A stretch of DNA of 64,000 nt from an uncultured Clostridia bacterium (GTDB lineage Bacteria; Bacillota; Clostridia; Tissierellales; DATGTQ01), in assembly GCA_964447805.1 (NCBI GenBank), contig CAYUTQ010000005.1:8398-72397 (forward strand). Reading direction: 5' to 3'. Below are positions 36,065 to 43,667 of this stretch, piece by piece. A model generated the notes under the pieces. The model was not told the origin of the DNA. It saw only the letters and a program-made list of their open reading frames with translations, and made no database searches. Within the stretch, counting starts at the first letter, position 1. Each line of letters begins with the position of its first letter. Both the position numbers and the translations under genes were made by a program.

Positions 36065-36700
36065 TTGCAATATAGAATAAAAAACTGGTTTCGAAGACAG
36101 TTCCAAGATAATTTTATAGTTTATTTTACTATGATGATTTTTTTAATTGTAGGGATAATTATTGGTTCAATAACTATCAAAGTATTAAATGGAGAACAAA
36201 AAAGTGAAATATTAAATTTTTTTAATTCTTTTTTTAAAACATTATCTAATAATGAATATGATAATATACAAATTTTTAAACAATCTATTTTGGACAATTT
36301 TAAAACTATTTTTATCATTTGGATAACTGGTATTCTTATAATTGGGATACCAATAATTCCTATTATTGTATTATTGAGAGGGTTTGCATTGGGTTTTACA
36401 GTTGGTTTTTTAGTAAATGAATTTGGTTTTAAAGGTTTTCTTTTTTCTCTACTTGCTATATTACCTCAAAATTTATTTATTCTTCCAGGTATTATTTCAG
36501 TATCATCTTCAGGATTAATTTTTTCTTTAAAACAAGTAAGTGGTAATAAAATTAGGACTCGTAGAGAAAGCATATTGCAGGATTTTATTAATTATTCTAT
36601 TACAACTTTAATGTATTCTATTATTATAATTATTGGTAGTTTAATAGAAGGATATATTACACCTAATTTTATAAGATTATTGTCAGAGTATTTTTCTTAG
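36065..36700 (+). CDS. spoIIM: Stage II sporulation protein M
   Basis: RGFALGFTVGFLV, LPQNLFILP, GSLIEGYITP; between NUDIX and xerD. Confidence 0.9.
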   Translation: MQYRIKNWFRRQFQDNFIVYFTMMIFLIVGIIIGSITIKVLNGEQKSEILNFFNSFFKTLSNNEYDNIQIFKQSILDNFKTIFIIWITGILIIGIPIIPIIVLLRGFALGFTVGFLVNEFGFKGFLFSLLAILPQNLFILPGIISVSSSGLIFSLKQVSGNKIRTRRESILQDFINYSITTLMYSIIIIIGSLIEGYITPNFIRLLSEYFS

Positions 36701-36713
36701 AGGAGAATTTTAT

Positions 36714-37604
36714 ATGGAAGATTTAATTGAAAAATATGATGAATATCTCAAAGAATATAAGCAGTTATCAATTAATACATTAGATGCTTATATAAGCGAT
36801 GTATTGCAGTTTAAAACATATTTAGATAATATTGGTCCAATTAGTTTATTAGAAGTAAATAAAACTCATATAATAACATATTTGATGTTTTTACAAAAAG
36901 AAAATATGGCAGTATCTACTATAAATAGAATTTTATCATCTTTAAGATGTTTTTATCAATATTTATTAAACAATAAAATGATTTGTGAAGATCCAACTTT
37001 TAATTTGAAAGCACCTCAATACGAGAAAAAACTTCCTAATATACTGACTCTTGAGGAAGTTGATTTGTTTTTATCTTTGCCTCAAGATGATAAATTTAAA
37101 GGTGCTAGAGATAAAGCTATGTTAGAGTTATTGTATGGGACGGGAATGGGAGTATCAGAAATTGTATCATTAAATTTGGATAATATAGATTTAGATATAG
37201 GGTATGTAAATATTAATAAATCCAAATCTAATGAAAGAGTAATTCCCATAGGTAAAATTGCTTTAGAATGCTTAGAAAATTATATTTATAATTTTAGAGA
37301 TTGTATTGTAGATGATAAAAATGAAAAGGCTTTATTTGTGAATTATAGAGGTAAAAGATTAACTAGACAAGGATTTTGGAAAATTGTAAAACAGTATACT
37401 AAAAAATCGGGTATTGCTAAAAAAATAACTCCTCAAATTTTAAGACATTCTTTTGCAGTACATTTATTACAAAATGGAGCAGATTTAAAAACTGTTCAAG
37501 AAATATTGGGACATTCAGATATTTCAACGACTAATTTTTATTTTTCATTTCTAAAGGATACTCCGTTGAGAGACATTTATAAAAAAACACATCCAAGAGC
37601 ATAG
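36714..37604 (+). CDS. xerD: XerD/RipX-like tyrosine recombinase with degenerate active site
   Basis: RDKAMLELLYGTG, LTRQGFWKI, LRHSFA, LGHSD, HPRA; Gly146 in place of catalytic Arg, Gln241 in place of His. Confidence 0.88.
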   Translation: MEDLIEKYDEYLKEYKQLSINTLDAYISDVLQFKTYLDNIGPISLLEVNKTHIITYLMFLQKENMAVSTINRILSSLRCFYQYLLNNKMICEDPTFNLKAPQYEKKLPNILTLEEVDLFLSLPQDDKFKGARDKAMLELLYGTGMGVSEIVSLNLDNIDLDIGYVNINKSKSNERVIPIGKIALECLENYIYNFRDCIVDDKNEKALFVNYRGKRLTRQGFWKIVKQYTKKSGIAKKITPQILRHSFAVHLLQNGADLKTVQEILGHSDISTTNFYFSFLKDTPLRDIYKKTHPRA

Positions 37605-37614
37605 GAGGTATAAT

Positions 37615-38433
37615 ATGAACTTTTTAGAAAAGATTAATGAAAGTGCAGAATATATTTTAAAAAATTGTGATTATAAACCTAACATAGGTATTGTGTTAGG
37701 TTCTGGTTTAGGAGAATTGGGAGAGAAAATAGAAGAGTCAACTGTGATTGATTATAGTGATATACCTAATTTTCCCATTTCAACAGTAGAGGGACATAAA
37801 GGAAGATTAATTATTGGTAAACTTGAGGGTAAAAATGTTTTGGCTATGCAAGGAAGATTTCATTATTATGAAGGTTATCCCATAAAAGATGTGACTTTTC
37901 CTATTAGAGTAATGAAAGCAATAGGTATAGAAACATTGATAGTAACGAATGCAGCAGGAGGTTGTAATATTAATTTTAAACCTGGAGATTTGATGATAAT
38001 AAAGGATCATATTAATTTTGCAGGAGTTAATCCATTGATAGGAAAAAATTATGATGAATTAGGTATAAGATTTTTGGATATGAGTAGAGCTTATGATAGA
38101 CAATTGATACAATTAGCCAAAAATGTGAGTAAAGAAATAGATATTGATTTAAAAGAAGGTGTATATATGTGGTTTTCAGGACCTACTTTTGAAACTCCTT
38201 CAGAGATAAAAATGGCCACATTGTTAGGAGCTGATGCAGTTGGTATGTCAACTGTACCTGAAGTAATAGTAGCTAATCATGGAGGTATGCGTGTATTAGG
38301 TATTTCATGTATAACAAATATGGCAGCAGGAATTTTAGATAAGCCTTTGAACCATGAGGAAGTTATTGAAACTACTAAAAAGGTTAGAGAAAAATTTGAA
38401 CAATTAATTAGAAAAATAATTGAAAATATGTAA
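37615..38433 (+). CDS. punA: Purine nucleoside phosphorylase
   Basis: VLGSGLG, MQGRFHYYEG, TNAAGG, GPTFETPSE, VGMSTVPE, TNMAAG. Confidence 0.95.
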   Translation: MNFLEKINESAEYILKNCDYKPNIGIVLGSGLGELGEKIEESTVIDYSDIPNFPISTVEGHKGRLIIGKLEGKNVLAMQGRFHYYEGYPIKDVTFPIRVMKAIGIETLIVTNAAGGCNINFKPGDLMIIKDHINFAGVNPLIGKNYDELGIRFLDMSRAYDRQLIQLAKNVSKEIDIDLKEGVYMWFSGPTFETPSEIKMATLLGADAVGMSTVPEVIVANHGGMRVLGISCITNMAAGILDKPLNHEEVIETTKKVREKFEQLIRKIIENM

Positions 38434-41741: not shown

Positions 41742-42482
41742 ATGGAGTATAAAGTAATATTAGAAACTTTTGAGGGACCTTTAGATCTTTTATTGCATTT
41801 AATAGAAGAAGCAGAAGTAGATATTTATGATATTCCTATAAGTGAAATTACAGAACAATATATAGATTATTTAAAAAAAATGCAAGAATTGGATTTAGAG
41901 GTGACTAGCGAATTTTTAGTTATGGCATCAACTTTATTAGAAATAAAATCAAAAATGCTTTTACCGAATGTAAAAAAAGACGAGAAAACTGAAAATGAAG
42001 AAAATGAAGCTGATGAAGATCCTAGAGCAGATTTAGTAAAAAGATTAGTGGAATACAAAAAATATAGAATGGTTTCAAATAAATTAAAACAAAGAGAGAA
42101 AATTCAAAATAAAATATTTTATAAGCCAAAAGAAGATTTAAGTTATATTGAAGAGGATAATGATAATCTAGAAGATTTAGATTTGAACCAATTGGTTATG
42201 ACATTAAACAATATATTAAAACGGAGAAGTGATAACTACAAGCCTTTGAAATTTGATGAGATACATCGTGATGAATATACTTTAGATGAGTGTATAAAAA
42301 AAGTAAAAAATGAAGTGGAAGAAAAGAATAAAATTAAATTTACTCAATTGTTTCATAAAGAGACTACTAGGACTGAAATAGTAGTTACATTTTTATCTAT
42401 TTTAGAACTTGTACGATTAAAGTACATAATTGTTAAACAAGAGGAAAATTTTTCTGATATTTTTATTGTAAAACGAATGTAA
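41742..42482 (+). CDS. scpA: Segregation/condensation protein A
   Basis: FEGPLDLLLHLI, EFLVMASTLLEIKSKMLLP, VVTFLSILEL. Confidence 0.96.
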   Translation: MEYKVILETFEGPLDLLLHLIEEAEVDIYDIPISEITEQYIDYLKKMQELDLEVTSEFLVMASTLLEIKSKMLLPNVKKDEKTENEENEADEDPRADLVKRLVEYKKYRMVSNKLKQREKIQNKIFYKPKEDLSYIEEDNDNLEDLDLNQLVMTLNNILKRRSDNYKPLKFDEIHRDEYTLDECIKKVKNEVEEKNKIKFTQLFHKETTRTEIVVTFLSILELVRLKYIIVKQEENFSDIFIVKRM

Positions 42483-42501
42483 AGAGGTGACTGTTAAAAA
42501 T

Positions 42502-43038
42502 ATGGACAAAAGAGAAATAAAATCAATAATTGAAGCTTTATTATTTGTTTGGGGGGATCCTCTTTCATTAAAAGATATAGCTAATGTATTGGAAATAAAA
42601 GAAAAAGATTTAGAGTCTATTATAGATGAAATGATAAATGAATATGATTATGAAAGAAGGGGTGTAAGAATAAATAAAATTCGTAATAGTTATCAATTAG
42701 GAACTAGACCTGAACATTTTGATTGGATTAAAAAACTTTGTGTACCTAAAGGGAAAAAAAATCTTTCAAATGCAGCAATGGAAACATTATCCATAATTGC
42801 TTATAGACAACCTATTACAAAAGTTGAAATAGAAGCTATAAGGGGAGTAAGGTGTGATAGAGCAATAGAAACTCTTATTGATAGAGAGATTATTGAAGAA
42901 AAGGGAAGGCTAGAAAGAACTGGAAGACCAATAATATATGGTACTACTAATAAATTTTTACAATATTTCGGCTTGAAAAATTTAAAAGAATTACCACCTC
43001 TTTCTGAAGTAGATGAAGAATTTGATGAAGGAAAATAA
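42502..43038 (+). CDS. scpB: Segregation/condensation protein B
   Basis: IIEALLF, LSNAAMETLSIIAYRQPITK.EIEAIRGV, YGTT..FL..FGL. Confidence 0.96.
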   Translation: MDKREIKSIIEALLFVWGDPLSLKDIANVLEIKEKDLESIIDEMINEYDYERRGVRINKIRNSYQLGTRPEHFDWIKKLCVPKGKKNLSNAAMETLSIIAYRQPITKVEIEAIRGVRCDRAIETLIDREIIEEKGRLERTGRPIIYGTTNKFLQYFGLKNLKELPPLSEVDEEFDEGK

Positions 43039-43097: not shown

Positions 43098-43667
43098 ATG
43101 GTTTGGTTAATAATATTATTGATTATGTTAATTATATTATTATTTCCAGTAAAAGTTTACATAAGATATAAAAATGAAGATAGAGATAAAATAAAAATAG
43201 AAATTACTTTAATAAAAGATTTAATTAATATTCCTGTTAATATTAAAAAAAATAAAAATATAATGGAATCTAAAACAAAAAAATATAATTATTTTTCAAA
43301 ATATTATAATTTATATAAGAAACCTGCTAAATATTTTTGGAAAAACATTAAGTCAGTAACGATTAAATGGATAACTAATATAGGTTTTAATGATGCTGCT
43401 ACAACTGGAATTATATCAAGTGTTTTGTGGACGTTGAAGTATACTATTTTATCTTTTGTTTTTAAAGAAAAACTAATAAAGAATATTTATATTGATGTAA
43501 TACCAGAATTTAACGAAAATAAATTCAAAACTAAATTTGTTTGCATAATTGAGAGTAAAGTTGTTCATATTATTATTGTAAGTCTATGGATTTTAATACT
43601 AAATAAAGGTGGTGAAGGTTTTGTTAGAACATCCAATAGAAGGCTTAATGACAACAACAATGAATAA
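43098..43667 (+). CDS. YtfI/DUF2953 protein
   Basis: N-terminal TM, IGFNDAATTGIISSVLW; upstream of gerW. Confidence 0.75.
   Translation: MVWLIILLIMLIILLFPVKVYIRYKNEDRDKIKIEITLIKDLINIPVNIKKNKNIMESKTKKYNYFSKYYNLYKKPAKYFWKNIKSVTIKWITNIGFNDAATTGIISSVLWTLKYTILSFVFKEKLIKNIYIDVIPEFNENKFKTKFVCIIESKVVHIIIVSLWILILNKGGEGFVRTSNRRLNDNNNE

Follow-up and report, generated by a model that had tools for sequence, protein, structure and literature searches.

A full-length XerD with a degenerate catalytic site in a Tissierellales genome and its possible non-catalytic role at the chromosome terminus

The stretch of 64,000 nucleotides analysed here, hereafter the window, comes from contig CAYUTQ010000005.1 (positions 8,398 to 72,397) of the genome of an uncultured clostridial bacterium of the order Tissierellales (GCA_964447805.1), and it carries on its plus strand, at 36714–37604, an uninterrupted open reading frame for a 296-amino-acid ortholog of XerD, a protein that forms one half of the XerCD enzyme for chromosome dimer resolution. 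Residues were mapped by an HMMER alignment to the structure of E. coli XerD (1a0p), which is gap-free in the relevant regions. In this alignment the first catalytic arginine (Arg-I, Arg148 of E. coli XerD) is replaced by Gly146, whose GGA codon (37149–37151) is one A-to-G transition away from AGA. The beta-hairpin loop reads NKSKSNER in place of GKGNKER (37215–37238), so that Ser170 stands opposite the catalytic Lys172 of E. coli XerD with Lys169 and Lys171 flanking it, and the first histidine of the HxxR motif (His-I, His244 of E. coli XerD) is Gln241, encoded by CAA (37434–37436). The second arginine, Arg244 (37443–37445), the second histidine, His267 (37512–37514), and Tyr276 at the position of the nucleophile (37539–37541) are all kept, as are Glu149, the Glu of the RxSE motif, and, by alignment to the XerD-FtsK-gamma fusion 5dcf, the C-terminal HPRA tail (37590–37601). 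The same alignment shows that the motif preceding the tail, which reads RQ-QQ in E. coli XerD and there contacts FtsK (PMC1914069, PMC5357621), is RD-KK here. Compared with a competent recombinase, then, the protein has Arg-II, His-II and the Tyr, and lacks Arg-I and His-I; a preliminary description of the locus had reported a full-length protein with just these substitutions and retained residues and with no frameshift, and the alignment to 1a0p bears it out.

How severe each change is likely to be can be judged from the mutagenesis of Cre, in which neither the hairpin Lys nor the Tyr can be dispensed with, activity is seen at Arg-I only with Lys or His while other substitutions are devastating, and Gln at His-I is tolerated, the H289Q protein being active (PMC2943603). 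On this scale it is Gly146 that decides the matter; Gln241 does not do so by itself, and the loop can be read either way. The preliminary description had held the whole R-K-H-R-H-Y set to be needed for cleavage; this is right for the hairpin Lys and the Tyr, both required in Cre, but it goes too far for His-I, since the activity of Cre H289Q indicates that a His-to-Gln change is not inactivating on its own. With Gly at Arg-I, a hairpin without the conserved Lys and Gln at His-I, this XerD is, to judge from its sequence, most likely unable to cleave DNA.

In its overall architecture the protein shows the two-domain tyrosine recombinase fold (PF00589, 145.8 bits, residues 111–277; PF02899, 63.4 bits), and its best match among solved structures is E. 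coli XerD 1a0p (E 8e-50). It passes the subfamily model PRK00283 (297 against 279) and misses the cut-off of the NCBIfam XerD equivalog TIGR02225 by a small margin (328.2 against 329.6 bits, residues 7–296 of 296). Its position in the gene order NUDIX-spoIIM-xerD-punA is conserved, with one XerD match per genome in 114 genomes, and this synteny supports orthology despite the marginal miss of TIGR02225; by sequence and by position we conclude that the protein is a genuine XerD ortholog. The upstream neighbour spoIIM (36065–36700; PF01944, 107 bits) ends with its stop codon at 36700, directly before a Shine-Dalgarno sequence, GAGGAG, that can be read at 36701–36706, 8 nt 5' of the ATG of xerD, and the two genes probably form one operon. 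Downstream lies a punA-type purine nucleoside phosphorylase gene (37615–38433; PF01048), and 4.1 kb from xerD come scpA, encoding the SMC kleisin (41742–42482; PF02616, 124.9 bits), and scpB (42487–43038; PF04079, 203.6 bits), all on the same strand as xerD. The nearness of xerD to scpAB had been pointed out before and is real, as a matter of proximity only, and it is weak evidence for a link between them; in most relatives the block containing xerD and scpAB lies 35–45 kb from the terminus. The host genome is 2.1 Mb in size, with 28% GC and a completeness of 99.65%. Independent Logan assemblies of two further public runs contain an identical protein (DNA identity 99.98–100%; they represent the same, near-identical population as the query genome), and because of this the GGA codon is not a one-off assembly error.

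The state of XerD in relatives was followed in about 270 homologs from three sets, namely 120 close homologs, a set of 30 genomes from the order, and 125 representatives of clusters (124 of them in the comparison of the GKG loop). Gly146 occurs in the query only, in each of the three (1/120, 1/30 and 1/125), the other close homologs having Arg (109) or Lys (10) at this position. The suggestion that the Arg-to-Gly change might be clade-wide is therefore not upheld, as Gly146 is species-specific and the nearest relatives carry Lys or Arg. Sharing was found for the His-to-Gln change, with Gln241 present in all seven nearest relatives (66–69% identity) and in 37 of the 120 close homologs, where His accounts for 81. 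Nor do the close relatives uniformly have Arg and His, for besides their shared Gln241 one of the seven has Lys146 and four have Arg146, and in two of the seven a deletion of 8 residues takes out the segment bearing the Tyr. One of these two Tyr-deleted proteins is present on five contigs. Arg244 is invariant (120/120 close homologs, 125/125 cluster representatives). Only one other genome belongs to the same family, and its xerD contains a TAG in frame, 8 codons from the end (contig C79, at about 2360), at a place where relatives have a Tyr; a truncated HPRA tail, an error of sequencing or read-through of the stop could each account for it.

The hairpin loop is hypervariable across the order, with many members lacking a Lys, and the lysines that flank the catalytic position are unconserved even in the nearest relatives. 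Throughout Clostridia as a class the loop is shorter by one residue and has no GKG, the Lys of xKER being kept, whereas Bacilli and some other classes of Bacillota retain a GKGxKER loop. All five other catalytic residues are kept in 34 of 36 cluster representatives with GKG versus 29 of 88 without it, and in the latter group Arg-II (88/88) and Tyr (85/88) persist. Loss of the lysine loop, listed earlier among the defects of this gene, thus stands insofar as GKG is missing, but it is not special to the query, being an old trait of the whole order in a loop remodelled across Clostridia.

Erosion of XerD goes much further elsewhere in Tissierellales. Three species of one genus have a 260-amino-acid form that ends before His-II and the Tyr and has no tail, and in a second genus XerD stops just ahead of the position of the Tyr; such truncated proteins without the Tyr occur in five genomes of these two genera plus two further genomes. 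In single genomes XerD is without the Tyr or has lost its frame, four further genomes lack the tail only, and no XerD ortholog was found in the 27 sampled genomes of families f3, f6, f7 and f15 (0/27). As far as the sequences tell, the Gly146 protein is the most extreme full-length case of an order-wide loss of catalytic constraint. Some side observations belong here as well. The 260-residue proteins share with the query an otherwise rare change of Arg28 to Ser in the N-terminal domain (AYLSD there, AYISD in the query); one genome from the XerD-less families has a XerD-like fragment of 250 amino acids at a contig start; and among the best representative matches are several proteins of 645–750 amino acids with two XerD-like halves, which may be tandem-fused Xer recombinases.

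That the query gene is maintained is indicated by both its conservation and its substitution pattern. Of the 99 alignment columns conserved to 95% or more among the other 119 homologs, it agrees at 98, Arg28Ser being the exception. The ratio of nonsynonymous to synonymous substitution rates (omega, dN/dS) was calculated by the method of Nei and Gojobori (NG86). Against the nearest relative, xerD has dN 0.196 and dS 0.91, giving an omega of about 0.22, next to 0.17 for punA, 0.08 for pdp and 0.11 for the M50 protease in the same pair; at 69% identity and with a dS of about 0.9, this relative is too distant to resolve the recent branch of the query, and a sister pair and the genus with the truncated protein were used instead. 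In the sister pair, 92% identical and having Gln241 and no Lys in the loop, omega is 0.11 for xerD, 0.06 for punA and 0.09 for spoIIM. For the 260-residue form without the Tyr it is 0.066, and therefore XerDs incapable of cleavage are kept by selection in this order. On these sequence comparisons the query xerD is under purifying selection and not decaying, and looks like an expressed gene; the test for decay by dN/dS, proposed earlier, comes out in favour of maintenance.

The inventory of other recombinases, likewise proposed earlier, revealed four intact tyrosine recombinase genes in the genome, namely xerD, one Xer-type gene on contig C44 and two phage-type integrase genes, and one broken gene. 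The latter, with TAA and TAG stops at about 15.5–16.1 kb of contig C25, is apparently a prophage or island remnant. The C44 gene, the only other Xer-type gene of the genome (6495–7457 of locus L039), encodes a protein of about 320 amino acids with all six catalytic residues, which are invariant in 20/20 of its orthologs, and pairwise comparison of the same genomes shows it to be better conserved than XerD (82 versus 66%, 74 versus 59% and 63 versus 38% identity). It falls below the cut-offs for XerS (142 against 267 bits), XerC (225 against 335) and XerA (200 against 220), and also below that for XerD. GC skew is very strong in this genome, and the cumulative-skew maximum of C44, at about 8.2 kb, adjoins the second Xer gene.

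About 30 bp before the probable start codon of the second Xer lies a palindrome, which we call site A (L039 6434–6463), consisting of GTCACAAAA, a variable centre of 6 bp and TTTTGTGAC; its arms are perfectly symmetric and invariant over 9–14 bp. Of 41 genomes from the order, 27 contain site A in exact form, each of them once only and in every case next to the second Xer; genomes without XerD are among them, and the checked members of the XerD-less families, four genomes, retain both the gene and the site. The cumulative GC-skew maximum lies 0.2–2.8 kb from site A in 9 of 9 loci, five complete genomes among them. As a motif of the whole class site A was rejected, with 0/146 genomes from the other orders. 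A whole-genome search for a 28-bp dif of the B. subtilis type, made up of a XerC arm and a XerD arm, found none; its best match (C25:7115) has 6 mismatches and lies inside an open reading frame, with no skew switch, and was discarded. With a complete catalytic set, a unique palindrome adjacent to the gene and a location at the terminus, the second Xer and site A look, at the sequence level, like an undescribed single-recombinase dif module whose site is confined to Tissierellales.

A second palindrome, site B (L039 6155–6181 on C44), lies about 280 bp from site A at the GC-skew switch and is unique in the genome. It is a perfect palindrome of two 11-bp XerD arms separated by a 5-bp spacer; the arms are one base off the XerD arms of S. 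aureus and E. coli dif (PMC11040001) here, and identical to the S. aureus arm in relatives. If C44 follows the contig of the window, site B is about 38 kb from xerD. The XDS sites of B. subtilis, bound by XerD independently of XerC, consist of a XerD site followed, after a centre of 5–6 bp, by just the inner bases of another (PMC9226527), and site B shows this layout, its two XerD arms being inverted about a centre of 5 bp, with no XerC arm and a place beside the skew switch. No second site B was found in the genome, even with a relaxed XDS-type pattern. In relatives, with one to three sites per genome, the exact site is at most about 3 kb away from the second Xer and at times present to its left as well as its right; its distance from site A is 280–550 bp in many genomes, and in some (G012, G036 and G040 among them) it flanks the module on both sides. 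Exact site B is present in 45 of 151 genomes of the order, compared with 3–4 for a reversed control pattern. It follows the presence of XerD, occurring in 43 of 114 XerD-positive genomes, in 2 of 37 XerD-negative genomes and in none of the 27 genomes of the four XerD-less families, in counts that come from related genomes and are not phylogenetically independent. Both XerD-negative genomes with the site are incomplete and belong to families that normally have XerD, and the site is present in all five genomes of the two genera whose XerD has no Tyr.

Lone XerD-arm 11-mers were considered too and set aside, as the three exact copies in the genome have no inverted partner and a rough estimate from base composition gives several by chance. 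One of the three, equal to the S. aureus XerD arm, falls in the window, on the minus strand at 43154–43164, just downstream of scpB and inside a DUF2953 open reading frame; it is probably a chance occurrence. Another genome (G034) has three identical exact XerD-arm palindromes on three contigs (C83, C138 and C155), with a near-copy 100 bp from one of them, so the site may belong to a repeated or mobile element there. Family f5 has XerD and the second Xer, with neither site A nor site B, and there other palindromes adjoin the second Xer, for example AGGTAACCT, 5 bp, AGGTTACCT, which may be diverged versions of sites A and B.

We favour, with moderate confidence, the reading that this XerD is a non-catalytic terminus-binding protein, released from its former task when the second Xer took over dimer resolution at site A, and acting at site B. 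In such a course of events, chromosome dimer resolution would have passed to the second Xer at its adjacent dif-like site, and XerD, freed from catalytic constraint, would have suffered an order-wide erosion of its active site, of which Gly146 would be the version of one lineage. XerD would persist as a sequence-specific DNA-binding protein, with site B as its likely target, and the retained role could be the unloading of SMC or some other marking of the terminus, such as stopping FtsK; the genome encodes SMC, ScpAB and a single gamma-domain FtsK, all of which could be its partners. Binding of XerD to site B and the use of site A as dif are what we infer from the layout of the sites, and SMC unloading by XerD here would be by analogy with Bacillus. 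For the order as a whole, the sequences suggest that XerD is now a DNA-binding terminus marker and that the second recombinase resolves chromosome dimers. The preliminary description had proposed a non-catalytic role with dimer resolution left to another recombinase, and the proposal now draws support from selection on non-cleaving XerDs, from a catalytic Xer at the terminus with a dif-like site and from the co-occurrence of XerD with the XerD-arm palindrome.

We regard it as unlikely that XerD, though non-catalytic, works inside the recombination machine, as an architectural or FtsK-responsive factor at the XerD-arm palindromes that stops FtsK or licenses the second Xer on dimers and does not act on SMC. 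The closeness of site B to site A in many genomes, on both sides of the module in some, would suit such a factor, and so would the gamma-domain FtsK and the HPRA tail, which adjoins the E. coli FtsK-contact motif and is kept in the query and most members. However, that contact motif has become RD-KK here, several lineages without the tail or the whole C-terminus still have site B, and the second Xer and site A are kept in the XerD-less families, so XerD is unnecessary for that module.

The main rival to the terminus-marker reading, one that we think rather improbable, holds that Gly146 is a recent loss-of-function change on the way to gene loss. Position 146 would then still have to be Arg or Lys in the XerD of relatives, where the basic side chain would serve catalysis or a tight phosphate contact, and the Gly of this species would be a fresh mutation, slightly deleterious or awaiting removal by selection, in a gene that would have stopped working here. 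The restriction of Gly146 to the query among all homolog sets, with Lys or Arg in the nearest relatives, agrees with this, as do the single transition from AGA, the origin of all copies of the Gly allele from one near-identical population, the in-frame TAG near the end of xerD in the only other genome of the family, and the loss of XerD from whole families. Yet the gene has 98 of 99 conserved columns intact, no frameshift or stop and a strong ribosome-binding site, and omega is about 0.2 along the long branch to the nearest relative. Moreover, forms that are more clearly dead, without the Tyr, are kept elsewhere in the order at an omega of 0.066, and therefore loss of catalysis does not equal loss of function.

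That XerD is still active, with the second Xer as its XerC-like partner on a two-arm dif and with the loss of Arg-I and the hairpin Lys made good by other residues, has very little to commend it, for although Tyr276, Arg244, His267 and Glu149 are kept, lysines stand on either side of the aligned catalytic position and Gln at His-I is tolerated in Cre, changes of Arg-I to residues other than Lys or His are devastating in Cre, the flanking lysines are unconserved even in the nearest relatives, the best match to a B. subtilis-type dif is a 6-mismatch sequence in an open reading frame away from any skew switch, and the two arms of the sole XerD-arm site are identical and 5 bp apart.

Several points weigh against a XerD that marks the terminus without catalysis. 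Gly146 is limited to one species whose nearest relative is 69% identical, so it may be a recent, mildly deleterious mutation, and Lys169 or Lys171, beside the aligned catalytic position, might substitute for the missing Lys. Arg-II, His-II, the Tyr and the Glu of RxSE are conserved in most full-length members, which would be unexpected if catalysis were fully dispensable. Because the genomes are related and not independent, the co-occurrence counts of XerD and site B overstate their support, and the exact site is absent from many XerD-positive genomes (0/17 in family f2, for example). The flanks of site B co-vary between genomes so as to lengthen the hairpin, and the site follows the stop codon of the upstream gene, from which it may also be a transcript terminator. 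The genome has a single XDS-like site, as against several XDS sites in B. subtilis, and every functional step of the explanation is read from sequence.

A broader proposal, which we put forward tentatively and at somewhat less than even confidence, is that Tissierellales possess a three-part terminus module, consisting of the new Xer, a symmetric dif and one or two double XerD-arm sites, served by a dedicated non-catalytic XerD marker, a SMC unloader or FtsK stop, whose active site is free to decay or whose gene is free to be lost. We know of SMC release by XerD at the terminus only from B. subtilis and S. aureus, in both of which one active enzyme does both jobs. Degenerate XerD relatives beside a single-recombinase system are already known from streptococci (PMC1914069). 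In the literature searched we found neither a degenerate XerD nor a dif served by a single recombinase reported from Clostridia or Tissierellia, the supplements of Kono et al. contain nothing on Tissierellia, and the same literature yielded no order-wide graded decay of a true XerD ortholog, no pairing of XerD with a palindromic double XerD-arm site and no symmetric dif-like site next to the gene of a new Xer type.

If the reading of XerD as a terminus marker is right, Tissierellales offer natural mutants that separate the two jobs of XerD, as a separation-of-function series with proteins lacking Arg-I (the query), the Tyr or the tail and with genomes lacking XerD altogether, and the non-recombinase role of XerD would be old and self-sufficient. 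All these variants occur together with what looks like a self-sufficient single-recombinase dif module and with a candidate XerD site that is both simple and unique; this makes it testable which parts of XerD the non-catalytic function needs, whether a symmetric dimer binds the site and whether the terminus site acts on SMC or on FtsK. The annotation 'site-specific tyrosine recombinase XerD' in Tissierellales, perhaps in much of Clostridia, may then not denote recombinases, and dif predictions based on XerD arms may select a site that does not recombine.

Among the systems described so far, the closest parallel in function would be the unloading of SMC by XerD at XDS sites in B. subtilis and S. 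aureus (Karaboja et al. 2021, summarised in PMC9226527, PMC12322038). As there, a XerD ortholog occupies its ancestral chromosomal position, SMC-ScpAB is encoded, with scpAB 4 kb from xerD, and the candidate site in the terminus region has a complete XerD arm facing a second, inverted one across 5 bp, with no XerC arm. SMC unloading by B. subtilis XerD is reportedly independent of the catalytic residue. However, Bacillus XerD is also the working dif recombinase, while the active site is broken here and dimer resolution is apparently the business of another enzyme; likewise, unlike the Bacillus XDS sites, site B lies beside a dif-like module, is single in this genome and has two full-length arms.

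The comparison with the XerD-like proteins of streptococci and lactococci (YnbA, NF002685), raised in the preliminary description, holds as an analogy only. There too dimers are resolved by one recombinase with dif next to its gene, XerS/difSL (PMC1914069), in a lineage that has kept a degenerate relative of XerD, and some XerDs of Tissierellales resemble YnbA in being C-terminally truncated and without active-site residues. The query, however, has 296 amino acids and keeps the Tyr, Arg-II, His-II and the HPRA tail, whereas YnbA has about 245 and is without the extreme C-terminus; it scores 61.9 bits with NF002685, below the cut-off of 178, and 328 bits with the true XerD model, and it stands in the ancestral NUDIX-spoIIM-xerD position. 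The erosion in Tissierellales is an independent event. The second Xer is in turn comparable to XerS/difSL and XerH/difH, single-recombinase systems whose hallmark is a recombinase gene adjoining its site (PMC5357621), for it has a complete catalytic set and lies beside a unique palindrome at the terminus with A/T runs as inner arm bases. It differs from these in not being a member of XerS, XerC or XerA, in the perfectly symmetric arms with a variable centre of 6 bp and in the confinement of its site to the order. With the canonical XerCD/dif of E. coli and B. subtilis, finally, the present system shares the fold, the order of the domains, the DNA motif of the XerD arm and the C-terminal tail, but it departs from it in having no 28-bp dif, a XerD without Arg-I and the GKG Lys, and a second Xer with a symmetric site of its own.

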